Shown: positions 5,279 through 63,302 of the stretch, piece after piece | How the letters are laid out: each line of letters starts with the position of its first letter | How positions within the stretch are numbered: position 1 is the first letter of the stretch | DNA from: Clytia hemisphaerica | Lineage: Eukaryota | Assembly: GCF_902728285.1 (NCBI RefSeq) | Contig: NW_027104472.1 | Coordinates: 999,681-1,063,680 of the forward strand | DNA: 64,000 bases | Direction: 5' to 3' | The notes under the pieces: model-generated | What the model saw: the letters and a program-made list of their open reading frames with translations, nothing else | Told to the model about the DNA's origin: nothing | Database searches by the model: none | Program-made: the position numbers and the translations under genes

Positions 5279-5454
5279 TTTTCTAATCCATATATTTATT
5301 ATAAATCAATTTTCGGGAATGGCGTCGATTGTTTCGGGTCGGTTTCATTTGTCTTCTTGCAAGCTGAACAAAGAAAAGATGTAGCATTTATAAATGAAAA
5401 ACGTATTTTTCCACTGTTTATAAGGGGGGGGGCGTAAAGTTAACTTTGAAAAGC

Positions 5455-10436: not shown

Positions 10437-10800
<364 letters not shown>

Positions 10801-12283
10801 ATCAATCAATTATTCCTGATTATTTCAATTAATTATTCCTGATTATTTTTATGCTTCAATCTTTAAAGCATTAAAAGCTTTATAAGTGCATGACATGACC
10901 TTTCAGTGGGGGCATTTAGTGAAAACTATGACTAGTTTAGCCTTTATTGAAACTTACAAAACTCAATCTACAATTGAACTTCATAATCGAATGTCCCTTT
11001 CTTATAAAGAGGGTGTCACTTTCCAACAAACCCAAGAAGGAGGGGATTGGATTAATTTTCCTAAAAAACGGATATATCAAGAAGATGGGTTCTGAAAGAC
11101 ACCCCCTTCTCACAGACCCACTGGGACCCCTTCCCCTGGAAAATTTGGCCAAAATATCAACCCCAGTGGAAAATTATCCTCCAATTTTTGTACCATATAT
11201 AAAATAATCAAAACGTATTTTATACTTTAAAAGTGGAAGTTTACTTAATATAAAATTTATTTTATACTTCCAAAGGGCCAATTTAGGGTATATTCACTGA
11301 CCTTTTTATATCCCTGGACCAAGCTATATCCAACATATTTGATCACAGTCTTTTTTGGAATTAGTACCCACAAGAAGAAGCCATTGCAATGTTAAAAATT
11401 AACGTCTAACGGCGCTACATCATCAAAAGTATTCTAGGAAAAGTAGATCCTTCGCTCTCGATACATTTTCACCGCTATTGAGTAGTGCCGCCATTAGGAT
11501 ACCAATATAAAAAAAAAAATCTGATCAAAGATTTGTGGTTGGGATGGATTGATTATCTTGGTCCAGGGACATATAAACTCTACCAACTCTTACCTTTTGT
11601 ACTGTTATAGAAAATTTCCAGCTCTCCAGGTCTTTGTTCCGCTAAAAGATAAAATTATTTCATCATTATTTTGACATTTTCCATTATTTTGGTATTATCA
11701 TTAATAATACTTTTACAATCGCTTTTTTCTCGCCTACACATTTTCTTTATAATAACAAACTATATGAGAATATAAGGCTTCGATAGCCAAAATGTTTAGA
11801 ACAAGTTAAGAACATTTTCAGACTTCGCGGACTTAAAAACAGCCAGTCTCTTAGGGAAATGGACAAAAATAAATAAAAAATAGGGAAAATGAGAAACTCA
11901 AAAATTTTGGATGTTCTTATAAAAAAACGTGTATCATCGAGAGTTTCATTTAGATTGACGATAGTTTTGGTCTACTTTATTTTAAGAAATATCCTGCAAC
12001 ATTTTAGATTTTCAATAACTTATATTGTTAGCTTTGCAATGATAAAAGCAAGTAAACTGCTCATGAAGTACATCATGAAAAGCACTCGCATTATTTCTAA
12101 ACATTGCCGAGCAATTCATCTTGCACTTTATATATAAAATCACACTTTAATGAATACATTCATTTAAAATGATTTTATTTTATTATTGGGGTCACTCCTC
12201 ATATTGAGACTTCGATGCAAGTGTTTTTAGGATGTAATTTTATGAGAAAATACCAATTTCCGAATTTTAAGTTTCAAAAGTAC

Positions 12284-13461: not shown

Positions 13462-14103
13462 CTGTAAAACAGAAGAAAAAAATGTTGTTCTGTATAACAG
13501 TAAAATTAGATTTTCATAGTGCTAGATAATTTACATAGAATTTGGGGTCAAAAGGTTTTTTCGAATTCTGTCATTCTGTCCAAAAGAGGATTCTGATTCT
13601 CCACCAGCCCTAGATCATTTTTTTGTAACATGCCAAATTTAGGTCTGATTCTCCACAACTGTTTTTGTAACATTCCAAATTTACTTCCTCTTACTACCTT
13701 GCCACATGAATATAAGTAGACAAGTATTTTAATCACCTTGAAATTAAAAAAACACGCAAATGAAAACACAAATTTTTAGCTTTTTAAGAGGAGACCATGG
13801 CCAGTTTTAATTAGTTTTGATTAAATAAAACAAATCTTTTTATTTTGTGTTAGATTTGTTAGACATGTTTACTTATACTTGTGTAAAATAAGTTTTGGTT
13901 TCAAACTTTAATCAAAGTGGCCACTTTTATTCAGGTACTTCTGTAAGTCGCTCCATCAGGAAGTCTTTTTTTACTCCACCCAATGATATTGCTGCATATG
14001 AAAAATTTCTGGCGCTGATGGTTTTTCAGTCATGGATCTTAGATGGTCTGCGGTCTTATAACTTATTACTGTTTTGGTTTCAAACTTTAGTCAAAGTGTT
14101 CAC

Positions 14104-14206
14104 CCTTTCTCTTCGATCTTTCTCTTCAGGTGCAACACCACAATAAGGTGTGATATCTCCAACAATACATTCAGCCAAATCATGAACTAAAGCAAGCTTC
14201 ATACAC
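14104..14206 (-). CDS. HDDC2: HDDC2-like exon B (HD motif)
   Basis: (R)[34 protein letters not shown] matches HDDC2 [27 protein letters not shown]. ttatttag acceptor, GTGAAC donor. Confidence 0.8.
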
Positions 14207-14477
14207 CTAAATAATAAGTGAAAATGAGCATTATGAGATCCTTTATATAAAATTAAATTCCCATAGACCCACAGTAATCGAAATTTCATTTACACTATTT
14301 ATTTATGGCTCTTTATAACTTCTATATGTTAAATCACTTACTTAATACTTAAATCAGTTTTAATTTTTCAATTTTTTTATCAAATTGTTCGAGACAAATA
14401 TTATCCATCCAAAGTTTAATTTAAAAGAGAGAAATCAGCAAAACTGATCTGCTGTATTCCTAATGTAAAGCCTATAC

Positions 14478-14599
14478 CTAGTTTTATCAATATCTGGAGC
14501 ATCTAAAAGCATTGCCATCATGGACATTCGATACATGTGGTCTGATACACTTTCAACATTTTTGATATCATGATGTGTCCAACCAGTTCTTTGTTCTGT
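14478..14599 (-). CDS. HDDC2: HDDC2-like exon A
   Basis: [40 protein letters not shown] matches HDDC2 [29 protein letters not shown]. ttttcag acceptor, GTATAG donor. The 5' Met exon was not found. Confidence 0.75.
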
Positions 14600-15289
14600 C
14601 TGAAAATAAAAAATAAAAATATAAACTTTAAAAACTAGGTGATGAGGGTCTTATGACAGGCTGAAAAAGGGGGAAAGGTGTTTTTTAGACTTTTCTATAA
14701 TGAAAACAAATTGTTATCATCAATCATCCAATTCAATTTAACTTGAACCAAAGATGTATCCACCTTTTGATAAAAACGTTTCTTTGTGTATTTTTAAGAA
14801 GAATTTCACAGAGGAAGAATTTCAACGCTTTCTAGAATTTTTCGATTTTGTATATTCTTAGTTACGTGTATTTAGGAAAAGAATATGCGAAAAATAACAG
14901 GTGAGAGCAAGTGAGAGGGTATATTCTTCCTCTAAATTCTTATGTGTAATGGGGCCTTAAGATTATACAGATTATATTTAAAGAAGCTTTCAGTGCGTTT
15001 CCCTTTATCTTTTCAATTTAAATTCAGTCATAGATTAAAAGAAAGTGAAAGCCACGTGCATTCACTTTCTGTACTCTCTCCCTTTTTCATAACTTGAATC
15101 GATATAGGAGAATTGTTTACTGAAAGAAATTCTTTCTCATAATAATAGACAAGTGCCATATAAACAAAACTCAACATTCTCAGAAAAATTGTCTTTTTGA
15201 TTTCCCAGATACTTGTCTAAAACGTTCACTTCCACAATAATTTATATAATTGCAATTTCGGTCAGTCCACAGTCGGCTTCAACATATAC

Positions 15290-31404: not shown

Positions 31405-31723
31405 CTTTGTGCATGAAAATGGTTTTTAACCCTTAATGGCTATGTTTTGTTTATCCCCTTATCTCCCTTTATACCCATCCCCCTTCTGTAATGAAATTTT
31501 ACCCCCCCCCCTTTTTTACAGAAAATCTGTTTCAAAGCAAACTTGCCCAATGCATCTTTATTACATTCAATGCTTAAATGATACAGCCTATGTCTTATTT
31601 TAATCATTATTCTTCTCTTTCTCATACTGCAATAATCATATTTTTATATTTTGTTTTTGTAGAAAATGTTTGTTATCAAATAGTGAATATTTAGGTATAC
31701 CTACCTTTTAAAAGGAAGAAACA

Positions 31724-32470
31724 ATGGGTAAACTAGAATTGCGACCAAATTTAAAGAGCAAGCACAACCTGGTGCAAGATGATCTGGGCTCGAACACTAT
31801 TCCATTAAAGAAAGCCAACATGTTAGAAGATCCTCAAAGCAGTTTAACAAAACAAAAGACTGAATTGGTTACTTCAAATGTAAAACCAGTTGGATCACTT
31901 CATTTAAACAATTTATTAGGAACTGGTATGAATATCAATAAAGCACCAAAACCAAGTCTCTTTAATAAATCTCTGCTACTTGGAAGCAGTAATCTAGAGA
32001 AAGGAAGCCTAAAGCCAACACTTTTTTGCACTACCAATCTTCTTCCGACAACAAGTTTAGATTTAGTCCAAAAACCTCAAAATGCATCATCATCGATGAA
32101 AGAGGAGAAACCCAAGACAAGCAAGCGGCTTCAAACTAAAAAGAGCAAAAAGAGAAACTCCTTGGAAATTCAAAATCTGAAAGGTCCAAGTAAAGTGACA
32201 AAGGACCATGACGCTGGAAAAATAACAAAGCGAAAGAAAAAGATTGTATCAGACAATAGTCATTCTAAGAAGAAGATCAAGGAAGCACAATTTGAGATTA
32301 TAACTGCCAGTATCAAGGAATTAAAACTGACTGATAATGAATTCAAAAGACAACAACTGGAGGTGATGAGGAATAAGTTGAAAGCTGAGAGTGAAAACCT
32401 GTTTACAGACTCTAAACAAGGAAGCTATGATGCCATCAAGCAGGAAAAAGAGAAAATTATTAAAGCTAAG
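31724..32470 (+). CDS. TEP1: TEP1-like gene exon 1 (start codon, K/S-rich low-complexity N-terminus)
   Basis: ATG in Kozak-like context aaacaATGG. 249 codons ending AAG|gtaaaa. Joins exon 2 in phase 0. Confidence 0.55.
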
Positions 32471-32996
32471 GTAAAATTTGATTTTCTTTGGTCGGAAACT
32501 CACCTTCAATAGTTCAAAACTATATGTTATGACCATTTACAGATAATGTTATTTAAATTGTGTCCAAGTGCATGCTTTTGCCAATGTAGAATAAATGTAG
32601 AGATGTATTTTTTTTTGGCTCTGTAAACCAACAAAAGCTTAAAAATTGATACAGTATTGAGTCTTTGGAATTCCAAACTTGTCCTTTTTATTGATTCATC
32701 CAGATTTTAAACAGCTTCGTTTCCTATGAAAAAGCTAGTTTATCAAAAACTTATATGAACAATTTTATTTTTACAAGCCTCAATTTTGGCTAACACTTTA
32801 GAGCAATTTAAAAACAATCCTAGCCTCCTTTTACTATGTCAATAAAAGAACATTTTACGAACATTTAATCCTTGAAATCACTAAAAAATTTAAACATGAA
32901 CAAAATGAACAAATTTACTCTGATTCTTTATAAAAGAAAAAGTAATTTATCTTAAATTTAGTATACGGTAATTTTTTAATTTTTATTCACTCACAG

Positions 32997-33353: not shown

Positions 33354-33515
33354 CTTGCGCTATACACAAGAAAAGTGTTGAATGTGCGTGTCGTGTCAAC
33401 ATTCATGGTAGCATTTGCTGCTTATGTTCAAGAATGTCGGCCATATTTGAAGAAATATTTCAATGCGTCCATTGTCCTACCATCAGACTGGATTGGAGCA
33501 GCAGAGTTATACCAG
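33354..33515 (+). CDS. TEP1: TEP1-like exon 3 (TROVE)
   Basis: LALYTRKVLNVRVVSTFMVAFAAYVQECRPYLKKYFNASIVLPSDWIGAAELYQ. The LALYTR..LN.R motif is typical of TROVE domains. ccatag acceptor, GTATGC donor. Confidence 0.8.
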
Positions 33516-33707
33516 GTATGCATTTCTGTACAAGAACTCTTTTTGACAGCTTTATTGGAAACTATTCTTGATATTTAACAAACCGAAAATATGATGTTAT
33601 ATGATATGTAAAGGGGGCAAGCTCTGTACTTTTAGGTATTTATTATAGAAAAGTCACACATTCTTAACTAAAAACATTTCAAAATTGAGTCTTTCCTTCC
33701 TTTCTAG

Positions 33708-33878
33708 ACATTTTTTGATTCTACCATCAAATTTGGTTCCATTCCAACTGTATTGAGGAAAGTCATGATCGAAAAGTTCTCTTCATTTGACGAATACCAG
33801 TTAGCCAAATACAACAAAGAGAAGTCCCAAAACAAGGCTAAAGCTGTGACTTTTTACCCTCACATGTATGAATTTATG
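33708..33878 (+). CDS. TEP1: TEP1-like exon 4 (TROVE)
   Basis: TFFDSTIKFGSIPTVLRKVMIEKFSSFDEYQLAKYNKEKSQNKAKAVTFYPHMYEFM. tttctag acceptor, GTGAGT donor. Confidence 0.75.
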
Positions 33879-34265
33879 GTGAGTTTTCAATATATCTTAA
33901 GCCAGAATTTATTTGTAGCCATTTTAAAATCAGTATTACATATTACATATTACATATTACATTTCGGATTTTCAAATTTACTGTCAGTAAATTATGAATA
34001 TGCAAATAAAACTTTTGATAGAATTTGAATTAGATTTGTAATTTTGTGTTCGTTGCAAAGATAATCATGGGTGATAAGGTTTTTTTCAAAATTTTTTCAA
34101 AAAATATTCAATCAAAAGATAGAGCCCCATATTAATCACTTCCTTGAAAAAAAGTTCAACCAGCCAAATTTAAAGCAATGGTATCTATCTATGCAGTATT
34201 TTTGGTTCAGAAAATGTTTCACAATAATGATGAGCTTAATTTTTTTCTGTTTTTTTTTTATCCAG

Positions 34266-43416: not shown

Positions 43417-43658
43417 GTTCGCCGCAAGAAGCGACTTGCAGATGATTCATCCAAAGTCAAGATTGAGCGTCCTATTCTAGCTTGGAAGACCATACGTGTT
43501 TTCATTTCGTCCACTTTTCGTGACATGCATGGAGAAAGAGATCTGTTGACCAAATACGTTTTCCCAGAGTTAAGATGCTGGTGTTACAACTATTGTTTGA
43601 ATTTGTATGAGGTTGATTTGAGATGGGGAATCACTGAACGACAATCACAATCAGACAA
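43417..43658 (+). CDS. TEP1: TEP1-like exon 17 (DUF4062)
   Basis: VRRKKRLADDSSKVKIERPILAWKTIRVFISSTFRDMHGERDLLTKYVFPELRCWCYNYCLNLYEVDLRWGITERQSQSD. Acceptor is tttttttgatcag at 43417, or possibly gaccag at 43396. AA|GTAAGT donor. Confidence 0.75.
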
Positions 43659-43789
43659 GTAAGTTCTTTCTAAGAAACTTTGCAGTTGAATCTCTCTAAT
43701 TCGATATTCTACTATTCGATACGCTCCATTATTCGATAATATTGAAAGAAACAAAACTCTTCGTAAAAGACACCATACTACCTTTATCG

Positions 43790-44110
43790 GCCAAAACTTA
43801 GTTGGCCTTAATTTTAGTTGGCCTTAATTATTAGTCGGCCCTAATTTTAGTCGGCCCTAATTTTAGTCACCTCGTCAAAATTTAGTCACTAAGGGTCGAC
43901 TAATAATTGAGACAGAATAAAAATTTGGGCCATTTCTAAATTTACAAGCAGATGGAAAATAGGAGAAAGCTTAAAATACTGGAAAATAAGGAAAGCTTAA
44001 TTATAAACTTTTCTTTTGGCCCAAACTTTTAGTCGGCCCCAATTTTAGTCGGCCCAAATTTTTAGTCACCAAGCCAAAATTTAGTCACTTAGGGCCGACT
44101 AAGTTTTGGC
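43790..44110. repeat. Minisatellite-like (ttttagtcggccc) repeats in two inverted blocks
   Basis: cttagttggccttaattttagttggccttaattattagtcggccctaattttagtcggccctaattttagtcacc... and 44020-44110, with partially palindromic agggtcgactaa / ttagtcggccc. Confidence 0.7.
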
Positions 44111-44439
44111 TGATAAGGTATTTGATATGCTCCCTTATTCGATGAAAATCCAATTCACCTTGAAAGTCGAATTTTTAGAGAGCGTCAACTGTATGTTTTC
44201 CCTGAGTTGAGATTTTTTTATTGTTTGAATTTTTATTCAGCTGCCATTATGATAAAGATGTGGGTGCTTCATTTTAAAATGGGGGAAAGATAACGAAAAT
44301 CGTGATGGCATAGCATGAAAATATTTTTCCAATTTTAAGATGAAAGTATTACATAAAAAAAAAAAAAAACTTTTAACTGAAGTAAACCTCAGCTTTTTTA
44401 AAAATTCCATTTAGCAAGATTTGAAAAGTAAATTTTAGC

Positions 44440-44590
44440 TTTAATAATACAATAATGACCGGTTAGTGAGGGCTGTACTGAGAAATATTGCCCGAGGTCA
44501 AGTAACGACCGAGCTTGCGAGGTTGTTGCGTTGACCGAGGGCAATATTTTCAGTACAGCCCGAAAAAAACCGGTCATTATTGTATTTGTT
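44440..44590. repeat. Hairpin element (about 60 bp arms)
   Basis: aataatacaataatgaccggttagtgagggctgtactgagaaatattgcccgaggtc mirrored by gaccgagggcaatattttcagtacagccc...accggtcattattgtatt. Confidence 0.5.
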
Positions 44591-45568
44591 AACCGTTTCC
44601 TTCAACTTTGATTGATTTTTAGCGCTTTATCCAGGAAAAATAGCGAAATAAAGCAGAAAAAACAAGCGAAAAGAGATAGAAAATTGCTATAATTTCTGAC
44701 GTCAGAAATAAAAAATGAGAGAAATGATGTCAACGCATTGTTCATTTTCCTTTGAAAAAGTGACGTCACAATGAATTTTCCTAACGACGGGCAACTCTGG
44801 ACAATGTAGGCCCGTCGTCATGCGAAAAGAACCAATTGCATTGCGCAAAAAGCCATGTAGCCCGCTTCGAAAAAGTAACCGGTTAACAAGAAACGATAAT
44901 AACCTTTCTTCTATATTCAAATATTTCAAAAACAGAGTTTTATGGCACTTTATCGGCGATCCAAAAAATATCTGCAATCTGATTGGTTAAAAAGAGTACA
45001 ATATATCTTGTATTTTACATGTAAAAATATAAATTGACGAAAAGATGTTGTTGCATTGTAGCGGTAACAGCAATCTAACGTCACTTTGCTACAAAAGTGC
45101 CCTGCGCTTTTTTCCAACACAAAAAGTGCATTTTTTGGGTCACCGATAAACCAGTTATCAGACATTTGCTCGTACAATATGGAAATATTTTACTCGTTCC
45201 GTATTTTCCGTAAATTTTCCTCGCCTAAAGGCTCGGAAAATATTGTACGGAAAAATCTCGGAACTCGTAAAATATTTCTCATATTGTACTCGCAACTGTC
45301 TGATAACTTATTACATAAAGTATTTACAATCATGGAAAAAATATTTGAGACAAAGGGGATTTCCCTGCGAAGTTTTGAACATAAAATTCTATAATTCTAT
45401 TTAATAATACACTTGAGTCTGTCGAATCTCAGCAACTCGGATGTCTCCTTAACTCGAACAAGTTTTATGGTCCTTTAATTTGTGTTTTTTGTGTGTGTTC
45501 AAGATATAGAAACTCCACAGTTGGATGTCTTTAATCACGCCATGAGTCAGCTAGTTCGTTCGTCCTGT

Positions 45569-46290
45569 CTAAATGCGTTTTTCCAATCTCACATTCAGTT
45601 TTCCCTTTGGTTTTACGAACAGGTTGAAATACGAATCAAATTCCCCTACAGGGTGAATAAAATATTTGTTGACCAGTTTCATCGTATACACAAGGATTGA
45701 ATTCTCAGCAATACGCCGCCCGACACATGATCGAGGACCGTGCCCGAAAGGGAGAACAGCAAATTTCGGGATCACTTCTTCAGTGCTATCCTTTGTTCCG
45801 AATGGGCAACCACCTTCTGTTTTCGTTTCCCGATTTCGTAGCCAACGTTCTGGTTTCATTTTATGGGAATCTTCAAAAAACTGTGATTGGTCGTAAGGGT
45901 TTGTTAGTAGACCAATCGTTGTTCCGGACGGTACCTCAAATCCGGACGGAAGGATAACATCTTGACGTAATTTTCTCATGCTAAGAGCTACCAATGGTCT
46001 CATGCGATGAATTTCTTTCAAGCTAGCTTTCAAATAGTGCTGTTGATTCACCTCTTTATAGCTTAGTGGCTTGTCTTTCGACAACACTTCTTTTGACTCT
46101 TGATATATTTTCTCTTGCACATCAGGATTGTTTGCTAGTTCAATCATTAGCCAAAAGATTACTGTTGGGACAGTATCAGTCGATGCACGCAATGTGTCCA
46201 CAATCATGGCTAATTTTACGGCATCCGAAACTTGGTCTTCAACTCCTTCAATCAAAGCCAACTTGTATTGGCTCAAAAGCTCCTCACAAC
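45569..46290 (-). CDS. P450 exon 6 (I-helix, K-helix, heme-binding Cys, stop)
   Basis: Strong acceptor ttttttgttgcctttatatctag. (G)CEELLSQYK...LRASTDTVPTVIFWLMIELANNPDVQEK (I-helix), KEIHRMRP (ExxR), FAVLPFGHGPRSCVGRRIAE (heme loop; GRRxAE is the mitochondrial-clan signature). TAG stop at 45569. The six exons total 1560 nt = 519 aa + stop. Confidence 0.85.
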
Positions 46291-46651
46291 CTAGATATAA
46301 AGGCAACAAAAAAGTTCCAATTAAAAGATCATGCAAATCCTTTAGGGCCACATTGATAAGGTTTATATTTCACGTGGAAAGACCATTGATTTTAGGACAT
46401 GTTGAGGGTCACATAGTCCATGACCAACCTGCTTTTGTTCTTGGTAAATTATGAATTAAAAATCTTTTTCTCCAAGGTCTCCGGGAACTCTGGGATGGCG
46501 ATGCTAACGCAAATATTTCATTAGAAAATCATGGTAAAAATTGGTAAATTTTCGGCAACGAAATCGAAAATGCTCCTGTCGGTCTATGTCGACATCGGCA
46601 CGGAAAGGGTTTTAAAAGACAGAAAATGATAATAAAAGCCTAATGAAAAAC

Positions 46652-46782
46652 CTTCATAAATTAGATCACTTGCTGCAACGAATTGGTGCCATTTCATTGT
46701 GTGTTGTGTTCTATGTTGAGGTTGGATTTCGATGTCTAACCAAGTTTTAAAGAATTCCTTAGCGCCAGTATAGGCCTTGTAA
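46652..46782 (-). CDS. P450 exon 5
   Basis: (A)YKAYTGAKEFFKTWLDIEIQPQHRTQHTMKWHQFVAASDLIYE. Compare CYP11A1 KTWKDHVAAWDVIFSKAD. gcttatag acceptor, GAAG|GTTTTT donor. A weaker alternative donor lies 60 nt downstream. Confidence 0.7.
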
Positions 46783-47072
46783 CTATAAGCAAGCAAAGAA
46801 AATTTCTTTAAATATTCAAAACTTCCAAAGTAACAAACAAAAACAAACAAAAGTACATTAATTTTAATATCTATTTTTAACAGGGCGGCTCCCTACATTT
46901 AATGCATGCGAAAAAATTCTTTAAACAATCGCAAGTCTCAGCTCAGATAATAAAAATCAAATTTCAAGTATATTTCTAGAGCTTTTCTTTGCAGTAAGTA
47001 CTGTGCAAAAAACGTCCTGAAAAAAGGCCATGATCTTAATTTAAATTAAAATTCGAATATTTAAAGACTTAC

Positions 47073-47361
47073 GCAGCTGGGTTTGCAGTTTGAATATCAT
47101 CTTCCAAAAATCCAAATCGTTGATTTAAAGTTAAGATCCCTGCACATTCAAATTGCCAGCGATCAACATCTTCCATAAAATCTTCTATGGTGTTATCTGA
47201 TGACTTATCCAATTTCCTCTGTATAAAATCAAGAAGATCGTCAGTAATTTGCGAGTATTGAGGGACAAATTTTGCGATTTTTTGTGGTCTCAACATCATT
47301 TTGCCCATCAGTTCGCGCCGCTCAAAGAATTCCTCACCAACTACATCTATATATAATAGAC
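47073..47361 (-). CDS. P450 exon 4
   Basis: (S)LLYIDVVGEEFFERRELMGKMMLRPQKIAKFVPQYSQITDDLLDFIQRKLDKSSDNTIEDFMEDVDRWQFECAGILTLNQRFGFLEDDIQTANPA. The GEEW-like helix C motif is present. ccttttag acceptor, GC|GTAAGT donor. Confidence 0.8.
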
Positions 47362-48023
47362 CTAAAAGGTGAACAAATGGTAAGGTACTATTAACTAGTA
47401 AGTGTTTAAATGGGGGGGGGGCTAGAAAATTTCAAAAAGCTCCAAAAAGCTCCAAAAAGGGGTTATTTATTTTGGAAAGACTTTGGCTGTTGTTTTTATT
47501 TTATTTTATGAGGAGGCTCAACTATTAAAGGGAAGCCTGCGAAACTCCATTGGATAGGATGAGACCAATGAGGACACCATGTAACTACATGTTTTTTCTT
47601 TTATAAGCGTAACGTATACAAACATATACAAGCTCATCAGTTTTTGGTACGTAAACAACGGCTCTATTGTTAAAGGACAATAGAATGCTAAGCATAATAC
47701 GAGCCTGATATACGGGCAGACACTTGCTTATAAAAGAGACATGTACTTATTATCTCGATTCACAGGTTCAAGTTACAGACCAAGATCCCTTCCATTATGA
47801 TTTGCCTATTCATTTTGAAAATACTCAAGGATATCCAGACTATTATATTAGTGAAAGTAAAGTAAATCGCTAAAATCACGACGATGAATGAAAATTTAAC
47901 AGGCTAGTGAGTTTCAACCAATCAAATTTCGTATTTTCACTAGCCTATTACATTTTTCGTCCGTTGTCGTGATTATCCTGGTATGCTTAACCTCAGTATT
48001 AAAAATGTAATAACATGACTTAC

Positions 48024-48151
48024 TTCTATTCCTGAGCTTTGAGTAGGCTTTTAAGGCCCAGATTGGACGTTCCAAATCATCTTCTGCTCCCAGTGAACGT
48101 AAAATAACTTCCCAATCGTAAGGATTGCTTGTAAACACCATATCTCCATTC
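48024..48151 (-). CDS. P450 exon 3
   Basis: NGDMVFTSNPYDWEVILRSLGAEDDLERPIWALKAYSKLRNR. tttcattag acceptor, AA|GTAAGT donor. Confidence 0.8.
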
Positions 48152-48730
48152 CTAATGAAATTTATAAGATTGGTTTAACATAAAAATTTGCTTTTGAATT
48201 CACGAGATTGTTATTCCAGTTGTTTTTCAAATCTTGTTTTTAATTCACAAGATTGTTTTTCTTTCCATGTATAAACCTAAAATACTTATTAAGGCTATTA
48301 AGTCACGTGCTCCTGTACTCCCAAAATTCTAGATGGTGCATGTGATTTTTTTACAGACAGAAACACCTTTGGACTAAATTTGTGCTTGAAAGTTATCTGT
48401 TTAAAATATATGTCAGTAAAAGTTTGACTATATAAATCTTGTAAACTTAAGTTTGCGAGTCCCCCCCCCCATATTCAAAAAGGGTAAAAAATAATTTGTT
48501 TTGGGTAAACCCAGAAAGAGAGAGTACCATTAATACATAAAATACACGTTTTTTTCATAAGAACAAACTATACAAGTACATAATACAAGGCTTATAGATA
48601 GTACATTTCCAAAGCAAGATATAAAATATTAAGAACAAGTTATTTTAAAGCGTCATGGACTCTACAACACCCAATTTCTTAGGAAATTGCACAAAAACAC
48701 TCAGAAACATGAGGAATTGAAGAACTTACA

Positions 48731-48926
48731 TGCCGAAATGTTCTCTGTACACAAACCCATATTCCTTTCTTCGATCTTCAAAGAAGCGATGTAAAGTTGC
48801 TTGCTCATATTTTCCGGTGATGAAAGGGATTAGAGAGGTCAGTGAAGGGAAAAGTCCTTTCACTTTCGGAATTTCTTCAAAAGGTTTGACGACGACGTTG
48901 TCTTCTAGGTTTAGTTGGTGAGCACC
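48731..48926 (-). CDS. P450 exon 2
   Basis: (G)AHQLNLEDNVVVKPFEEIPKVKGLFPSLTSLIPFITGKYEQATLHRFFEDRRKEYGFVYREHFG(M). The KYG.IYRE motif is characteristic of mitochondrial CYPs. aataaag acceptor, AT|GTAAGT donor. Confidence 0.75.
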
Positions 48927-49873
48927 TTTATTGACAAATTTAAAATGTTGTACACGTTTTTTTCTTTATTAGAACCCAGTTTATAAGAACATTTAGGCTG
49001 AAATTCGTCGAAAAATTAAGAACATCGTAAGAACATGCCCAGCCTCAGTTTGGAAAAAAATGACGAGAAACTACAATTTTTTCCTCTTTTCAAGCAGTTT
49101 TAACCAAACTTAGGGATGGATTTTCTAAAATCGAGAGTCAAATATTGTCCAAACTTTACCAGCTTTAAGTGCTCTTTATTTTGCATGATGTTGTCGATTT
49201 AAAGTAGTCCGAAAAATTAAGAACGCATTAAGAACATTTTAGGCTAAAAATTGCTAAAAAAATAAGCACATCCAGGCTCAGCCAAATTTTACGTGTTCTA
49301 ATAAAAAAAAAAACGTGTAGGTTAAGGGCTTTGATAAATATTAGGTCAAGAGGGTTTACAAAATACAAAGAGTAGTAGGGTAGCATACAATAATAATACC
49401 GAGTTTATGTATCGGAGGATATCGAGGGCGACGGTAAGTGAAATCGATACAAAACAAAGTCGATAGTTGATGTACGGCTCTATATCGCCTTTGCTCACCT
49501 AAACAGACGACGGTATTTTGGTGTTTTTACCGTCGTCGAGCAAAGTGGACGGTGATTTTGGAGACATGTCAACTTTGCTTTATACCGTCCCCCTCGATTT
49601 ATCTCGAATACATAAACTCGCTAATTATTGAGATTCGGCTCTTAATATGCACTTTTGAGGACGGTAGAGTGACTGAAACGATATGGAATAGCCTGCAGTT
49701 CTGACCAGCAATATCATCGAGGACGGTAAAAGTGCTGATTAACCGTCGTCCTCAGCTGGTCAGTTTCTAGTCAAATTAGAACCTTACCGTCTCTGTGTCA
49801 GAAAAATACACACACATAAATTCGGTAATATGTAAACAAGGAAGGAAACATAGATTTATAATCATACACATAC

Positions 49874-49967
49874 CTCTCCGTAAAACTTTAACTTGACCAG
49901 TGTTGATATTCTTGAAAGTGTTCAATCTAGTTCCATAATTAACTGGAAGTTTTTTAAAACCCAACAT
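49874..49967 (-). CDS. Mitochondrial-clan cytochrome P450 exon 1 (start, presequence-like)
   Basis: ATG at 49967 in context aaaATGT. MLGFKKLPVNYGTRLNTFKNINTGQVKVLRR(G) is basic and hydroxylated, like a mitochondrial targeting peptide. Consensus donor GAG|GTATGT. Phase 1 joins exon 2. Confidence 0.6.
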
Positions 49968-50674
49968 TTTAAACGTAAAACGAATCTCAAGTTCTGAAGC
50001 TCAAACTTACAATTTTGACATGAGAAATTAATTTGTTATTGTCAGCGTATCTACCTACGGATTTACACAACAAACAAACTTATAAACAAACTTATAAACA
50101 AAATATAAACAAAAACTCCTTACGGTAAGCCGCAAATCTAAAGTCTGTTTACATTGGCTTTAATTCAGAGTCTTTTATGAAACAAATATTTATCAAAAAC
50201 AAAGAGACAGAAATGTTTTTTGTAATCTCAATCAATTATTCTGTAATGAATACTTAGTTACCCTTAATTAATCTGAAATACCGTCACTTAACAATTGATC
50301 AAATCCGATTGGGATAGTTGGGATAGTTAGTTACGCCATAAAAATCTAAGTTAAGCTTTTACGGAAATTCTGATTGACACAGACCTTTATTTCTTCACAT
50401 TTTCTTTTCGTTACTTGCCCCTTTGGCAGCTTCGACGCACGATTGGCTTTTTCTGAAAATTAAGGTTAGGAACAGCCTGGAGTTCTCCATAATTGCCAGG
50501 ACTGGCTGAAATTTGGTTCTGTGAGTGAAATACCTTGAAATTTTTTTCATTTTCCCAAAAAATTAATGCACGGGACGAGGGCCTTCGAATTATCTGAGAA
50601 ATACTGTAGTTACTCCCAGTGGAGTGCGTAGGCACGACAGTTTCTTAACCAAAAAAGTTTTTCTCCTTTTCTAG

Positions 50675-50911
50675 GCAATTGGAGCTATGTTTGAGTGAAG
50701 TCCAGAAAGCTGATCTTTTCGTCGGTATGTTGGGCGAACGATTTGGATGGGTACCTACCAAATACAAAGTGGAGGATGAAGAGAATCTAGGATGGGTCAA
50801 AGACATGCCAAAAGGATGCTCCATGACCGAGTTGGAAATGAGAGGTTTCTTGAGAGAAGATTCAAATGCATCCAAAGCATTGTTCTTGTTCAGAGATCCT
50901 GAATTTTTGAG
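50675..50911 (+). CDS. TEP1: TEP1-like exon 18 (DUF4062 continued)
   Basis: (K)QLELCLSEVQKADLFVGMLGERFGWVPTKYKVEDEENLGWVKDMPKGCSMTELEMRGFLREDSNASKALFLFRDPEFL. ttctccttttctag acceptor, AG|GTATAC donor. Follows a 7 kb intron. Confidence 0.75.
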
Positions 50912-51594
50912 GTATACGTTTTTTTTTTTAAGAAACACACTTTTAAGAAACATGAGGCTCAGAATGTCTAAAAACTAAGAAACATCTAAGAAACATGCTG
51001 AGGCTGAGAATGAGAAAATAACTAATTTTTTAATTCGTTTTTTTTAAGAACCTTCCAATCCAGCCTTTCATAAGGCTGATTATGTCAAAAAGTTTAGAAA
51101 CATGTAAGAAACATTTAAGGCTCAAAAGGCCGATTTCTTTAAGAAACATCGAGGCTGCTTGGTAAAACTAGTTCTTAAAAAAAAAAAAAACGTGTGTCAT
51201 ATTCAAATTAATAAGAGAAAGAAAGGAGGGGTGGTAAGATAAAACATGCAATCTTTAAAAACTAAAATAGATAATCAGTTGGTTTGAGACATTTTGCCTG
51301 TTGATTCCTTCCAAGGTTCTGAGCAAAACCTCTAAAAATTATTGTCTTTTTCAAAGTTGAGTTCCATTGTTTTCTTACTAAAACAAAAAAAACTTGTAAC
51401 TTATCTTGACTATATCATAAGACAAAAATTATATCTGAACCTGTAATATCATTCATTGTTTTTGAGTTTTTTGAATTTTGAATGCTTGTCATTTTTAAGG
51501 AGAAAAGTGAAAAGAATTGCCTTGGTGTTGAGGGAACATGCTAAAAAAATTTAAATATAATTTGTTTTTCATTTTTTCGATTTTTTTTTACAGT

Positions 51595-52229: not shown

Positions 52230-54640
52230 TACCCCGGTGGAGGTCCTATAAATTAACCTTTGTCCGTCTGTCCGTCCGTCTGTCCGTCCGTCCGTTAGTT
52301 ACCAGCTTTTCTCGAGATTGGCTCATTAGTTTTTTCTGATTTTTTGCACAATGATGCAAAATGGCAATGCCCAAAATGTGACGGAGCCCGATTTTCGAAA
52401 AAAAATTTTGGGGGGCAAATTTGGGCCAAAAAACGGCTAAAAAACGGGTTTTTTGGACTTTGTGAAAAATTTTAATTTTTTCTGATTTTTTGCGCGAAAG
52501 TAGGGTACCATCATAGGTATAAGATGGTTCAAGCAGATTTTTGCAAAAAAATTTTGTTGGCCCAAAAAACGCACGTTTATCTATAAGAATCACTATTAAT
52601 AAGCATACATCGATGTTCTTAGTCAAATTACTCAATTTTTTTTATGAGATAGATGTTTTTTCTGCTCAAGAGGGCTTACTTTTGAAGAATTTGTGTGTTT
52701 TCGACAGGAAATTTGGGTTGCTTGGGCGTTTTTTATAGAAAAACTGGCCAAATTCGATATTTTTTTATAAGCACATTATCAATTACTTAGGTATTGGCTT
52801 TTCTCGAGATTGGCTCTTTTTTCTTTATGATTTTTTACACAAAGATGCATAACTATAAACCCTTGAATGTGACAGAACCTGATTTTCGAAAAAAAATGTT
52901 TTGGGCCAAAAAACGGCTAAAAAACGGCTTTTTTGGACTTTGTGAAAAATTGGATCATTAATTTTTTCTGATTTTTTGCACGAAAGTAGGGTACCATCAT
53001 AGGTATAAGATGGCTCAAGCAGATTTTTGCAAAAAAATTTTGTTGGCTCAAAAAACGCATGTTTATCTATAAGAATCACTATTAATAAGCATACATCAAT
53101 GTTCTTTGTCAAATTACTCAATTTTTTTTATGAGATAGATGTTTTTTCTGCTCAAGAGGGCTTACTTTTGAAGAATTTGTGTGTTTCGACAGGAAATTTG
53201 GGTTGCTTGGCGTGTTTTTATAGAAAAACTGGCCAAATTCGATATTTTTTTATAAGCACATTATCAATTACTTAGGTATTGGCTTTTCTCGAGATTGGCT
53301 CTTTCATTCTTTATGATTTTTTACACAAAGATGCATAACTATAAACCCTTGAATGTGACAGAACCTGATTTTCGAAAAAAAATGTTTTGGGGCAAATTTG
53401 GGCCAAAAAACGGCTAAAAAACGGCTTTTTTGGACTTTGTGAAAAATTGGACCATTAATTTTTTCTGATTTTTTGCACGAAAGTAGGGTACCATCATAGG
53501 TATAAGATGGCTCAAGCAGATTTTTGCAAAAAATTTTGTTGGCTCAAAAAACGCATGTTTATCTATAAGAATCACTATTAATAAGCATACATCAATGTTC
53601 TTAGTCAAATTACTCAATTTTTTTATGAGATAGATGTTTTTTCTGCTCAAGAGGACTTACTTTTGAAGAATATGTGTGTTTAGACATGAAATTTTGGTTG
53701 CTTGGCGTGTTTTTATAGAAAAACTGGCCAAATTCGATATTTTTTTATAAGCACATTATCAATTACTTAGGTATTGGCTTTTCTCGAGATTGGCTCTTTC
53801 ATTCTTTATGATTTTTTACACAAAGATACATAACTATAAACCCTTGAATGTGACAGAACCCGATTTTCGAAAAAAAATGTTTTTGGGCAAATTTGGGCCA
53901 AAAAACGGTTAAAAAACAGGTTTTTTGGACTTTGTGAAAAATTGGATCATTAATTTTTTCAAATTTTATGCATAAAAGTAGGGTACCATCATAGGTAAAA
54001 GATGGCTTAAGCAGATTTTTGCAAAAAAAATTTGATGGCTCAAAAAACGCATGTTTATCTATAAGAATCACTATTAATAAGCATACATCAATGTTCTTTG
54101 TCAAATTACTCAATTTTTTTATGAGATAGATGTTTTTCTTTTCTCACGAGTGTTTAGACAGGAAATTTTGGTTGTTTGGCATGTTTTTATTGAAAAACTG
54201 GCCAAATTCGATATTTTTTTATAAGCACATTATCAATTACTTAGGTATTCGATTGATTGGCTCTTTCATTTTCTACGATTTTTTGCATAAAGATGCATAA
54301 TTATAAACCCTCAATGTGACGGAGCCCGAGTTTTGGAGAAAAAAATTTTGGGGTATAGTTCAGCTAAAAAACGGCCATAAAAGGGTTTTTTGGACTTAGT
54401 GAAATATTGGACCATTGTTTTTTTCTGATTTTTTGTATGAAAGTAGATAAAAGATGGCTCAAGCAGACTTTTGTAAAAAATGAATTTTTCAGCTCAAAAA
54501 AAGCATCTTTATCAGTAAGAATCACTATTAATAAACATACATCAATGTTCTTAGCCAAATAACTCAATTTTTTGGAGATGTTTTTTTGCTCACGAAGTCT
54601 TGAATATGAAAGAACATTTCAAGAGCATGAAATTTTGGTT
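52230..54640. repeat. Tandem satellite, about 490 bp unit x5 (plus (GTCCGTCC)n at 52261-52296), in TEP1-like intron 20
   Basis: ttttctcgagattggctc recurs at about 52307, 52799, 53284 and 53779, with a diverged unit near 54250. Near-identical ORFs (MSNLTKNIDVCLLIVILIDK...) recur in each unit on the minus strand. Confidence 0.85.
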
Positions 54641-55079: not shown

Positions 55080-58000
55080 AAGAAATCCTGAAGTAGGATT
55101 TAAAGTAGAGTTTCTTTAACTCGAACCTCTTTATAAATCGAATGTCTCCTTAACTCAAACAAGTTTTCTCATACCTGAGTTAGCAATGCCTTATGAAACT
55201 TACTCCATAACTCAAAATTTCCCTCACTCGAACAAATTCGTGTTCCTCGTGCTTGTTCGACCTATTGATACTGTATTCATTTTCTTCTATATAAATCGAA
55301 TGTCTCCTTAACTCAAAATTTCCTTCACTCGAACAAATTCGTGTTCCTCGCGCTTGTTCGACCTATTGATACTGTATTCATTTTCTTCTATATAAATCGA
55401 ATGTCTCCTTAACTCAAAATTTCCTCACTCGAACAAATCGTGTTCCTCGTGCTTGTTCGACCTATTGATACTGTATTCATTTTCTTCTATATAAATCGAA
55501 TGTCTCCTTAACTCAAAATTTCCCTCACTCGAACAAATTCGTGTTCCTCGTGCTTGTTCGACCTATTGATACTGTATTCATTTTCTTCTATATAAATCGA
55601 ATGTCTCCTTAACTCAAAATTTCCCTCACTCGAAAAATTCGTGTTCCTCGTGCTTGTTCGACCTATTGATACTGTATTCATTTTCTCTATATAAATCGAA
55701 TGTCTCCTTAACTCAAATTTCCCTCACTCGAACAAATTCGTGTTCCTCGCGCTTGTTCGACCTATTGATACTGTATTCATTTTATTCTATATAAATCGAA
55801 TGTCTCTTAACTCAAAATTTCCCTCACTCGAACAAATTTCGTGTTCCTCGTGCTTGTTCGACCTATTGATACTGTATTCATTTTATTCTATATAAATCGA
55901 ATGTCTCCTTAACTCAAAATTTCCCTCACTCGAACAAATTCGTGTTCCTCGTGCTTGTTCGACCTATTGATACTGTATTCATTTTCTATATAAATCGAAT
56001 GTCTCCTTAACTCAAAATTTCCTTCACTCGAACAAATTCGTGTTCCTCGCGCTTGTTCGACCTATTGATACTGTATTCATTTTCTTCTATATAAATCGAA
56101 TGTCTCTTAACTCAAAATTTCCCTCACTCGAACAATTTCGTGTTCCTCGTGCTTGTTCGACCTATTGATACTGTATTCATTTTCTTCTATATAAATCGAA
56201 TGTCTCCTTAACTCAAAATTTCCCTCACTCGAACAATTTCGTGTTCCTCGTGCTTGTTCGACCTATTGATACTGTATTCATTTTCTTCTATATAAATCGA
56301 ATGTCTCCATAACTCAAAATTTCCCTCACTCGAACAAATTCGTGTTCCTCGTGCTTGTTCGACCTATTGATACTGTATTCATTTTCTTCTATATAAATCG
56401 AATGTCTCCATAACTCAAAATTCCCTCACTCGAACAAATTCGTGTTCTCGTGCTTGTTCGACCTATTGATACTGTATTCATTTTCTTCTATATAAATTGA
56501 ATGTCTCCTTAACTCAAAATTTCCCTCACTCGAACAAAATCGTGTTCCTCGTGCTTGTTCGACCTATTGATACTGTATTCATTTTCTTCTATATAAATCG
56601 AATGTCTCCTTAACTCAAAATTTCCCTCACTCGAACAAATTCGTGTTCCTCGTGCTTGTTCGACCTATTGATACTGTATTCATTTTCTTCTATATAAATC
56701 GAATGTCTCCTTAACTCAAAATTTCCCTCACTCGAACAAATTCGTGTTCCTCGTGCTTGTTCGACCTATTGATACTGTATTCATTTTCTTCTATATAAAT
56801 CGAATGTCTCCTTAACTCAAAATTCCCTCACTCGAACAAATTCGTGTTCCTCGCGCTTGTTCGACCTATTGATACTGTATTCATTTATTCTATATAAATC
56901 GAATGTCTCCTTACTCAAAATTTCCCTCACTCGAACAAATTCGTGTTCCTCGTGCTTGTTCGACCTATTGATACTGTATTCATTTTATTCTATATAAATC
57001 GAATGTCTCCTTAACTCAAAATTTCCCTCACTCGAACAAATTCGTGTTCCTCGTGCTTGTTCGACCTATTGATACTGTATTCATTTTATTCTATATAAAT
57101 CGAATGTCTCCTTAACTCAAAATTTCCCTCACTCGAACAAATTCGTGTTCCTCGCGCTTGTTCGACCTATTGATACTGTATTCATTTTATTCTATATAAA
57201 TCGAATGTCTCCTTAACTCAAAATTTCCCTCACTCGAACAATTCGTGTTCCTCGCGCTTGTTCGACCTATTGATACTGTATTCATTTTCTTCTATATAAA
57301 TCGAATGTCTCCTTAACTCAAAATTTCCCTCACTCGAACAAATTCGTGTTCCTCGTGCTTGTTCGACCTATTGATACTGTATTCATTTTCTTCTATATAA
57401 ATCGAATGTCTCCTTAACTCAAAATTTCCCTCACTCGAACAAATTCGTGTTCCTCGCGCTTGTTCGACCTATTGATACTGTATTCATTTTATTCTATATA
57501 AATCGAATGTCTCCTTAACTCAAAATTTCCCTCACTCGAACAAATTCGTGTTCCTCGTGCTTGTTCGACCTATTGATACTGTATTCATTTTATTCTATAT
57601 AAATCGAATGTCTCCTTAACTCAAAATTTCCCTCACTCGAACAAATTCGTGTTCCTCGTGTGTGTTCGAGCTATTGATACTGTATTCATTTTCTTCTATA
57701 TAAATCGAATGTCTCCTTAACTCAAAATTTCCCTCACTCGAACAAATTCGTGTTCCTCGTGCTTGTTCGACCTATTGATACTGTATTCATTTTCTTCTAT
57801 ATAAATCGAATGTCTCCTTAACTCAAAATTTCCCTCACTCGAACAAATTCGTGTTCCTCGTGCTTGTTCGACCTATTGATACTGTATTCATTTTATTCTA
57901 TATAAATCGAATGTCTCCTTAACTCAAAATTTCCCTCACTCGAACAATTTCGTGTTCCTCGTGCTTGTTCGACCTATTGATACTGTATTCATTTTCTTCT

Positions 58001-58600
58001 ATATAAATCGAATGTCTCCATAACTCAAAATTTCCCTCACTCGAACAAATTCGTGTTCCTCGTGCTTGTTCGACCTATTGATACTGTATTCATTTTCTTC
58101 TATATAAATCGAATGTCTCCATAACTCAAAATTTCCCTCACTCGAACAAATTCGTGTTCCTCGTGCTGTTCGACCTATTGATACTGTATTCATTTTCTTC
58201 TATATAAATCGAATGTCTCCTTAACTCAAAATTTCCCTCACTCGAACAAATTCGTGTTCCTCGCGCTTGTTCGACCTATTGATACTGTATTCATTTTATT
58301 CTATATAAATCGAATGTCTCCTTAACTCAAAATTTCCCTCACTCGAACAAATTCGTGTTCCTCGTGCTTGTTCGACCTATTGATACTGTATTCATTTTAT
58401 TCTATATAAATCGAATGTCTCCTTAACTCAAAATTTCCCTCACTCGAACAAATTCGTGTTCCTCGTGCTTGTTCGACCTATTGATACTGTATTCATTTTC
58501 TTCTATATAAATCGAATGTCTCCTTAACTCAAAATTCCCCTCACTCGAACAAATTCGTGTTCCTCGTGTGTGTTCGAGCTATTGATACTTAATTGTATTC
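55080..58600. repeat. Tandem satellite, about 100 bp unit x about 34, in TEP1-like intron 20
   Basis: Unit cgaatgtctccttaactcaaaatttccctcactcgaacaaattcgtgttcctcgtgcttgttcgacctattgatactgtattcattttcttctatataaat, with periods of 99-101 bp. Related motifs also at 40740-40830 and 45420-45470. Confidence 0.9.
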
Positions 58601-58615
58601 ATTTTCATCCTTTAG

Positions 58616-58819
58616 AACAATGAGAATGTCGAAACAAGCACCTTGTCGATTGCAGACAAACACGTGACCTTTGCCAAAGAAAATGGCGACCAATTTGTCG
58701 GACGAAAGTCGTTATTAACCAAAGTATCCTCTCTGTTACATGACGAGTCTTCCGTCAGCGTCGGCAAAAACGTTGTCGGTATTGTCGGAAAAAGTGGATC
58801 CGGAAAATCAGCCTTTATG
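58616..58819 (+). CDS. TEP1: TEP1-like exon 21 (NACHT Walker A)
   Basis: NNENVETSTLSIADKHVTFAKENGDQFVGRKSLLTKVSSLLHDESSVSVGKNVVGIVGKSGSGKSAFM. P-loop GKSGSGKS. tcctttag acceptor, ATG|GTAAGT donor. Follows a 6.5 kb satellite-filled intron. Confidence 0.85.
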
Positions 58820-59163
58820 GTAAGTTGAAATGGAAACTCATTATGAGAACATGTGCATTTGTCGAATGGTTTTTTAGAGTCGATATATTTTACGTGGATA
58901 GCCCATTTAACTAGATTTTTTAGGCAGTCTTTCGATTGTTTTCACGGGGCCAACAGCCTCGGCTAACTAACTGAAAATAACATTGGAATAACCGAAATTT
59001 CGACCCATTGCTCCTTAAGTTGTTTGCTTTTTAAAAGAAAGATGGATATTTTCCAATATTGTTTTTCGTTGAGATGGTGTATTAAATAAGACAATCCCTG
59101 AAATATGTAGCATTCTACCAATCCTTTTAGTTTGACTGACCGTTGAGTTATCTTGTGTTTCAG

Positions 59164-62027: not shown

Positions 62028-63302
62028 TTAATTACTGCATAATACCGAGTTAATTTGTTTAACTAACGTTCTTATAAAAACAGGACAGCACAGGTCTTCA
62101 CTCCAAACCATAACATTCGTTTGATCGTTCAAAACAGGCGATTTTTCAATCGTATCATCAATATGTATAGAGATTTCTCGCAAATATCTTTTCCGACTAT
62201 TCTTTCTGTAGATTAATAAGAAATGATGAGATGTCTTTTCAGGAGGGGGTTCTTTTTCAAAGGGAACGTCGAGGCCAGGTATTATATTGTAAGGACCAAA
62301 ACCAGGGTTGTTGGATGAACTTTGGCCTGGCATTATTGGACCAGGGTTGCCTGGCATTGTTGGACCAGACGAACTTTGCGGACGTAAACTCAGATCAACC
62401 ATAATTTTAGTTTCGAGATAATTATTAGTTTGTTTTGATGTAGCTCCAATCATCCATACGAAAAACCGCTCGAATGAATATACTTGGGACCTTGTTATAT
62501 TTCTGAGATGAATTTCTACCATATTGTTATTTCCAAAACATTGGTGGAGGTTCAAAACCGAGTCTTGATATGTGTTTACGTTTTTATTCCTCACTATATC
62601 AACCATAATTTTAAACATATGTCTGTTACTCTCTGTTAGATCGAATCTTAAGAAGTTTAGTATGGGTACCCAACTTTGTAAAAGTTGACAAAAATCATCT
62701 TCATCTTGGAACTGTGGGGGACAATGAACTACAATGTTATAATGTTTAACGTTTTGCAATTTTTTCAGTGCATCTGACTTCTTTTTTTTCATAAGAAAAA
62801 TCTGTCGCTTCCATTTTTCATCATTGTGCCATGGAGTAGAATACACTTTCCAAGATCTTGAGAAAAAGTATAGGATGCTTTGCTCTGCCTTTTCACTACC
62901 TGTTGGTAAAGTCGATACTAATTCCATCAATTCGTTTGTTTCGATGTCATCAACACGAGCAATTTCTCTCGCCAGATTATTGATAAAATCTTTTTCTTGA
63001 AGTCGAATCAATTTTCTATTGTGCATTGAATAAATCCACACTCCAGTACAAGAATCCCTCAAAAAAGATGACACTAGCGGAACCAAGAAGGTTGGATCAA
63101 AACTTTCATACTCATCTATGACATCCAATAAGATTGTGACATTTTTAGCTTTCAAACAAACTCTGTTATGCTTTGAGTTATTATCTCGGCCAGAAGAGAC
63201 TTCAAAACATGACAGTAAAAATGCTATCATCAAAAATTTCCAATACATCTTCCTCCTCTTCCGATTCTCCGAAGTTAGAATTTTAAAAGGAAGGAAAATC
63301 AT
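62028..63302 (-). CDS. Single-exon ORF: putative secreted protein of unknown function (424 aa)
   Basis: ATG at 63302 (a second in-frame ATG at 63248 begins MYWKFLMIAFLLSCFEVSSG). Hydrophobic signal-peptide-like N-terminus. Internal G/P-rich stretch PQSSSGPTMPGNPGPIMPGQSSSNNPGFGPY. I recognise no domain. Confidence 0.5.
   Translation of the reverse strand: MIFLPFKILTSENRKRRKMYWKFLMIAFLLSCFEVSSGRDNNSKHNRVCLKAKNVTILLDVIDEYESFDPTFLVPLVSSFLRDSCTGVWIYSMHNRKLIRLQEKDFINNLAREIARVDDIETNELMELVSTLPTGSEKAEQSILYFFSRSWKVYSTPWHNDEKWKRQIFLMKKKKSDALKKLQNVKHYNIVVHCPPQFQDEDDFCQLLQSWVPILNFLRFDLTESNRHMFKIMVDIVRNKNVNTYQDSVLNLHQCFGNNNMVEIHLRNITRSQVYSFERFFVWMIGATSKQTNNYLETKIMVDLSLRPQSSSGPTMPGNPGPIMPGQSSSNNPGFGPYNIIPGLDVPFEKEPPPEKTSHHFLLIYRKNSRKRYLREISIHIDDTIEKSPVLNDQTNVMVWSEDLCCPVFIRTLVKQINSVLCSN

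Follow-up and report, generated by a model that had tools for sequence, protein, structure and literature searches.

The cytochromes P450 (P450s) of vertebrate mitochondria (CYP24A1, CYP11A1, CYP11B and CYP27) belong to class I, depend on adrenodoxin and have a basic extension at the N-terminus instead of a membrane anchor. The same clan includes the arthropod CYP12, CYP301, CYP302, CYP314, CYP315 and CYP49 and the cnidarian CYP375, CYP377 and CYP3338. In Nematostella, Acropora and Aurelia, ~4–11% of CYP genes belong to it; it is absent from Hydra vulgaris, the sole hydrozoan in a survey that did not extend to Clytia (Pankov et al., 2021; PMC8110760). In the crystal structure of CYP11B2 with adrenodoxin, Arg366/Lys370 and Arg453/Arg454 are located at the adrenodoxin interface (PMC8215293). 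Genes residing within introns make up ~6% of Drosophila genes, and 2mit in timeless2 is a complete coding gene that lies within one host intron in the opposite orientation (PMC3786989). Here, we describe a stretch of 64,000 nucleotides (nt) from Clytia hemisphaerica (RefSeq assembly GCF_902728285.1, contig NW_027104472.1, positions 999,681–1,063,680 of the forward strand; the whole stretch is referred to as the window, and positions are those of the window). Very probably, the region 45569–49967 on the minus strand is a single-copy-looking mitochondrial-clan P450 gene with six coding exons, situated inside a 7-kb intron of a TEP1-like gene and encoding an enzyme for which we infer a mitochondrial function.

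The Clytia P450 resembles the vertebrate enzymes over its full length and is alike in the FGxGxRxCxGRRxAE loop, the basic pair of the K-helix, ExxR and PERW, with a predicted basic N-terminal extension likewise taking the place of a membrane anchor. It differs from them in its low identity (23–25%), in a Phe for the helix-C Trp, in a shorter stretch before the I-helix and in an insertion before the heme loop, and shows no orthology to any vertebrate family. The arthropod families named above supply the best-scoring named non-hydrozoan matches (25–30% identity over ~90% of the length), but the Clytia protein stays below 40% identity to arthropod CYP12, and a neighbour-joining tree groups it with a protein of Hydractinia and environmental sequences instead. 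The cnidarian CYP375, CYP377 and CYP3338 share clan and phylum with the Clytia P450 and are likened to it by clan only; clan members from the anthozoan Porites are ~25% identical. Since both Clytia and Hydractinia possess a mitochondrial-clan P450, the clan is not missing from hydrozoans in general; its absence from H. vulgaris looks more like a loss in Hydra than a trait of hydrozoans. The nested arrangement is that of 2mit in timeless2. Set against the nested genes of Drosophila, the Clytia pair is nothing unusual; nothing indicates that the P450 and TEP1 are functionally linked, and Hydractinia does not share the arrangement. The locus appears to be an ordinary, annotated P450 in a commonplace animal genome layout, of little value beyond annotation.

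Gene model and clan placement of the P450

Six minus-strand exons totalling 1560 nt and encoding 519 residues plus a stop codon had been proposed for the gene, and the exon assembly reproduced them: the exons form a single open frame of 519 residues followed by TAG, all internal borders are of the canonical AG/exon/GT type and neither stops nor frameshifts occur across the six exons.

49874–49967, minus strand: exon 1 (predicted), 94 nt; 31 codons counted from the ATG, plus 1 nt; donor GAG/GTATGT
48730–48925, minus strand: exon 2, 196 nt; residues 32–97; contains KPFEEIP and EYGFVYRE; corresponds to the start of A0A7M5VAZ4
48024–48151, minus strand: exon 3, 128 nt; residues 97–140; identical to XP_066933688.1 and A0A7M5VAZ4
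47073–47361, minus strand: exon 4, 289 nt; residues 140–236; helix C GEEFFERR; identical to the public models
46652–46782, minus strand: exon 5, 131 nt; residues 236–280; identical to the public models
45569–46290, minus strand: exon 6, 722 nt; residues 280–519 and TAG; identical to the public models

Exon 1 encodes MLGFKKLPVNYGTRLNTFKNINTGQVKVLRR, a presequence-like peptide, and exon 6 holds the I-helix ASTDTV, the K-helix LKASLKEIHR, PERW and the heme loop FGHGPRSCVGRRIAE with Cys468. On alignment to intronless homologues the exon junctions sit in ungapped stretches, and exon 2 aligns gap-free. Intron 1 also contains two inverted repeats resembling miniature inverted-repeat transposable elements (MITEs), one at 48951–48975/49295–49319, with arms that are 96% complementary, and one at 49506–49539/49717–49750 that is rich in ACCGTC/GACGGT.

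The gene and its reading as a mitochondrial P450 are already known from public databases. Residues 97–519 are identical to the top match, RefSeq XP_066933688.1 (423 residues; 'probable cytochrome P450 12a4, mitochondrial [Clytia hemisphaerica]'), and residues 32–519 are identical to UniProt A0A7M5VAZ4 of the same cluster (488 residues), a fragment that starts exactly at exon 2. Exons 2–6 and their junctions are thereby confirmed by two public models; the RefSeq model also includes the exon 2/3 splice, since the ATG of XP_066933688.1 straddles that junction. NCBI and the UniProt source both annotate a protein-coding gene. No record was returned when XP_066933688.1 and the adjacent open frames of 424 and 406 residues were looked up as exact products. 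The original prediction had called the gene complete, a description that depends on exon 1, which is contained in no database sequence.

The protein matches the Pfam p450 family (PF00067) with an E value of 2.9e-49 and 168.5 bits against a cut-off of 22.8, residues 72–493 covering profile positions 17–436 of 462; with this score and 100% identity to the public models over residues 32–519, the similarity is far beyond chance. The motifs are GEEFFERR (148–155), ASTDTV (315–320), EIHR (372–375) followed by MRP, PERW (426–429) and FGHGPRSCVGRRIAE (461–475) with Cys468. The superfamily signatures FGHGPRSCVG (461–470), ExxR and PERW are present, as is the acid–alcohol pair of the I-helix (D318–T319). 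The motifs quoted earlier for helix C, the I-helix, EIHR with MRP and the heme loop all stand; the one given as 'KYG.IYRE' is a small inaccuracy, the actual residues being KEYGFVYRE (87–93). In an alignment of the Clytia P450 with nine homologues (ten sequences), the invariant positions include E372, R375, P426–L430 (PERWL), F461, G462, G464, the heme ligand C468, G470, R471 and R472.

Among solved structures, CYP24A1 is nearest (7e-37 over residues 75–491), followed by CYP11A1 (2.6e-31 to 1e-22) and CYP11B1/2 (~1e-17), all over the full length, whereas microsomal and bacterial P450s match the C-terminal half only, with at most 56.6 bits. The CYP24A1 match, which spans 417 residues, settles the P450 fold. 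Of the 120 best matches from a search of 5.8 billion proteins, all those that are named bear a mitochondrial-clan name (CYP12, 301, 302, 314, 315, 49, 44, 10, 27, 24 or 11). The Pfam family, the nearest structures and these names all bear out the proposed assignment to the mitochondrial clan. The GRRxAE sequence that had been taken as the mark of the clan is typical but not universal, occurring exactly in 76 of these 120 listed homologues.

The basic residues that contact adrenodoxin in CYP11B2 have counterparts in the Clytia protein. A K-helix pair with (i, i+4) spacing, K367/K371, corresponds to Arg366/Lys370, and R471/R472, which follow Cys-x-Gly, correspond to Arg453/Arg454. K371, R471 and R472 are invariant in the ten-sequence alignment, and position 367 is Lys or Arg in all ten. 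At the sequence level, there is good ground for reading the protein as a class I mitochondrial monooxygenase that depends on adrenodoxin. The enzyme would enter mitochondria by means of the basic N-terminus, free of acidic residues, that the predicted exon 1 encodes, and would sit on the inner membrane. There it would receive electrons from NADPH via adrenodoxin reductase and an adrenodoxin-type ferredoxin, which would dock on the proximal face at K367, K371, R471 and R472. The substrate that the enzyme hydroxylates would be lipophilic, most likely a sterol-like compound or another lipid.

The name attached to the RefSeq entry implies a narrower relationship than the comparison supports. Membership of a CYP family requires at least 40% amino-acid identity. 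The Clytia protein is 24–27% identical to CYP12 proteins of Stomoxys, Drosophila and Ceratitis, clusters elsewhere in the neighbour-joining tree and is at most 36% identical to any other protein. It is therefore below the family threshold, and 'CYP12a4' is, by this measure, a mere best-hit label and not a statement of orthology. The Clytia P450 would receive a CYP family of its own or one shared only with other hydrozoans.

The TEP1-like host gene and its intron

The P450 gene had been predicted to lie antisense within one intron of a TEP1-like gene, and the intron borders at 43658 and 50675 were recovered together with an in-frame join and a DUF4062 domain split across the two exons.

43429–43658, plus strand: 3′ part of a host exon; first half of DUF4062 (RVFISSTFRDMHGERDLL...DLRWGITERQSQSDK); donor CAGACAA/GTAAGT
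43659–50674, plus strand: host intron, 7,016 nt; houses the entire P450 coding sequence, in antisense, and MITE-like inverted repeats
50675–50912, plus strand: host exon; second half of DUF4062 (QLELCLSEVQKADLFVGMLGERFGW...); acceptor TTTCTAG/GCAATTG

The two exons join in frame (...ITERQSQSDK/QLELCLSEV..., with the border marked by a slash). The joined peptide matches positions 1–68 of the 82-position DUF4062 domain with 57.5 bits; taken alone, the first half matches positions 1–23 with 23.0 bits, below the cut-off, and the second matches positions 42–77 with 29.8 bits. The best named match is a 'telomerase protein component 1-like' protein of Saccoglossus, with 50% identity across 98% of the joined peptide; its residues 106–191 align to 43429–43659 and residues 190–272 to 50670–50912, with nothing between. 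When the joined DUF4062 exons were used to query the protein collection, only short proteins (at most 280 residues) came up, none of them from Clytia.

Further host domains are found on either side of the intron. A TROVE domain (128.7 bits) lies upstream, in plus-strand frames at ~33354–34025, and an exon with the P-loop GKSGSGKS lies downstream at 58616–58825, where nSTAND1 and AAA_16 are matched below threshold (20.7 bits against a cut-off of 27.1). TROVE followed by DUF4062, the order used as the family test for TEP1, is the order found here, and the predicted domain succession of TROVE, DUF4062 and P-loop NTPase matches the TEP1 architecture. No WD40 exons were found within the window. Just upstream of the TROVE exons, a lysine-rich low-complexity open frame of 266 residues (31712–32509, plus strand; MGKLELRPNLKSKH...) may represent the initial coding exon of the TEP1-like gene. 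Downstream TEP1-like introns contain two large tandem arrays, one at 52305–54573 with a 495-nt unit (4.7 copies) and one at 55203–58589 with a 101-nt unit (33.7 copies, 97% identity).

The P450 coding sequence (45569–49967) falls wholly inside the interval 43659–50674, its stop codon 1,910 nt from the 5′ end of the host intron and its ATG 707 nt from the 3′ end. ATTAAA signals occur 34–164 nt beyond the stop codon, and the whole P450 transcription unit can thus plausibly fit inside the host intron. No Rfam families or tRNAs were found in this intron. Domain continuity across the two host exons supports the P450 coding sequence being nested antisense in a single intron that splits DUF4062.

The 5′ end of the gene and alternative explanations

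Candidates for exon 1 comprised all ATG-initiated open segments up to 4.5 kb upstream of exon 2 that end at a phase-compatible GT (n = 70). The exon of the original prediction has the best donor of the 70 (GAG/GTATGT, 4.81); the runner-up scores 2.27 and would encode 4 residues. The predicted exon gives the junction ...GTTTTACGGAGAG/GTGCTCACC... in the predicted product and places 44 residues before the conserved KPFxEIP, compared with 42 in Hydractinia and 35 and 45 in two proteins encoded on European Nucleotide Archive (ENA) contigs, whose N-termini, like that of Hydractinia, are similarly basic and acid-poor. The first 38 residues contain seven Lys/Arg and no Asp/Glu, as does the 31-residue peptide of exon 1 by itself, and the maximum 19-residue Kyte–Doolittle mean is 0.98, with no hydrophobic stretch able to serve as an anchor in the endoplasmic reticulum (ER). 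By way of the predicted exon 1, the N-terminal composition fits a presequence better than an ER signal anchor. This exon, although unproven, is probably right. Both public models lack it; with it, the predicted product becomes a plausible complete precursor that includes a targeting peptide. The main contribution of the analysis is a 5′ end that is likely to improve the gene model.

Several observations weigh against the reading of the locus as a complete, nested gene for a mitochondrial P450, and most of them concern this exon. Exon 1 is without outside support: XP_066933688.1 begins at M97, the UniProt model is a 5′ fragment that begins at exon 2, the exact 519-residue product is absent from the protein collection, and a search with the N-terminal 118 residues gave no matches, a weak negative as it covered cluster representatives only. 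A basic, acid-free composition also arises by chance in AT-rich DNA (34% G+C here), being found in ten of the 374 Met-started open 31-mers of the window (~3%). Hydrozoans, moreover, use spliced-leader trans-splicing. These points would favour a real gene with the wrong exon 1, the true 5′ end being another exon, trans-splicing or a start at M97. Such an exon might lie upstream of the host exon at 50675, in which case the P450 gene would not be strictly confined to one intron. We regard an error of this kind as unlikely, if worth keeping in mind, given that the donor is by far the best of the 70 and that the length before KPFxEIP and the basic, acid-poor make-up agree with those of the homologues; a start at M97 would furthermore delete both KPFxEIP and YGxIxRE, which all full-length homologues keep. 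Beyond exon 1, the clan placement comes from a neighbour-joining tree that lacks an outgroup from another clan, and import, redox partner and substrate are matters that we infer from the sequence, as are the joining of the host exons, the limits of the P450 untranslated regions and expression.

Departures from consensus also count against a working enzyme. The Trp of the helix-C WxxxR motif is replaced by Phe (GEEFFERR), the second I-helix threonine is a Val (ASTDTV compared with the AGxDTT consensus), 16 residues are inserted before the heme loop relative to CYP24A1, and the protein is very divergent, with no more than 36% identity to anything else. A catalytically dead or decaying copy, either a pseudogene or a non-enzymatic protein, is nevertheless very improbable: the six exons are free of frameshifts and stops and have canonical splice sites throughout, ExxR, PERW, the Cys loop, D318–T319 and the proximal basic residues are kept, and the gene is annotated as protein-coding by NCBI and the UniProt source. 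The helix-C position varies in related hydrozoan-type sequences too, being His in two ENA-contig sequences. The Phe in helix C, ASTDTV and the heme-loop insertion, some of which are common to relatives, would be no argument alone for lost function. That the protein is a microsomal (ER) P450 seems more improbable still. The assignment to mitochondria is drawn from sequence, with exon 1 only predicted, but a hydrophobic N-terminal anchor is missing, all close relatives belong to the mitochondrial clan and the adrenodoxin-contact residues are conserved. We attach equally little weight to the flanking plus-strand exons being two different genes, with an intergenic rather than nested P450. Neither a transcript nor an annotated full-length TEP1-like protein of Clytia was retrieved; however, each exon would carry half a domain, so they are not sensibly different genes. 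The halves of DUF4062 are complementary and pass the cut-off when joined while the first alone does not, both exons align gap-free to the one Saccoglossus protein, both splice sites are of the canonical type and preserve the frame, and many uninterrupted proteins span both halves at 45–50% identity.

Relatives, origin of the nesting and other features

The closest relatives of the Clytia P450, which we read as a mitochondrial-clan enzyme, are Hydractinia symbiolongicarpus XP_057294172.1 (35–36% identity) and the two ENA-contig proteins (P0003 and P0004; 32–33%), which have the same motifs and a similar presequence-like N-terminus. In the neighbour-joining tree, Clytia, Hydractinia and two environmental sequences form a clade with a bootstrap of 100/100, apart from the anthozoan and bilaterian members. 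The gene structures differ: the Clytia gene is nested and interrupted by five introns, whereas those of Hydractinia (locus L001, 10001–11491) and of the one ENA contig examined (locus L002, 7428–8915) each consist of one exon, of 1,491 and 1,488 nt, respectively. Introns were either lost, by retroposition, in the Hydractinia and ENA lineages or gained in Clytia. No overlapping genes were found within 10 kb on either side of the Hydractinia P450, and no TEP1-like DUF4062 sequence was found at the Hydractinia locus or at the examined ENA-contig locus. As these homologues are not nested, the nesting looks specific to the Clytia lineage.

Insertion of the P450 into the host intron as a retrogene was considered and rejected for Clytia because the gene has five introns. 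The nesting most likely arose incidentally, through relocation of a gene or growth of an intron, and would have no dedicated function. A more elaborate proposal, that a hydrozoan-specific lineage of mitochondrial P450s (Clytia, Hydractinia and relatives) makes an endogenous sterol- or lipid-derived signal in medusozoans and that the antisense position in the TEP1-like intron couples expression by transcriptional interference, is one that we consider barely credible; no finding points to either part.

An open frame of 424 residues at 62031–63302 on the minus strand begins like a signal peptide (MYWKFLMIAFLLSCFEVSSG) and includes a stretch rich in Pro and Gly; no Pfam family matches it, and neither start variant is on record in the exact-product look-up. 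Since it lies downstream of the last P-loop exons of the TEP1-like gene and the host WD40 exons would be outside the window, it may represent a further antisense gene, the second within this host, nested in a different intron.

Three further features were noted elsewhere in the window.

3959–5305, minus strand: open frame of 449 residues, apparently intronless; Shaker-type voltage-gated K+ channel (BTB_2/T1, 1.3e-20; Ion_trans, 8.6e-28)
14083–14289 and 14438–14650, minus strand: two exons of an HD-domain phosphohydrolase gene (HD_3, HDDC2-like)
10442–10810: (TCAA)n microsatellite, 92 copies

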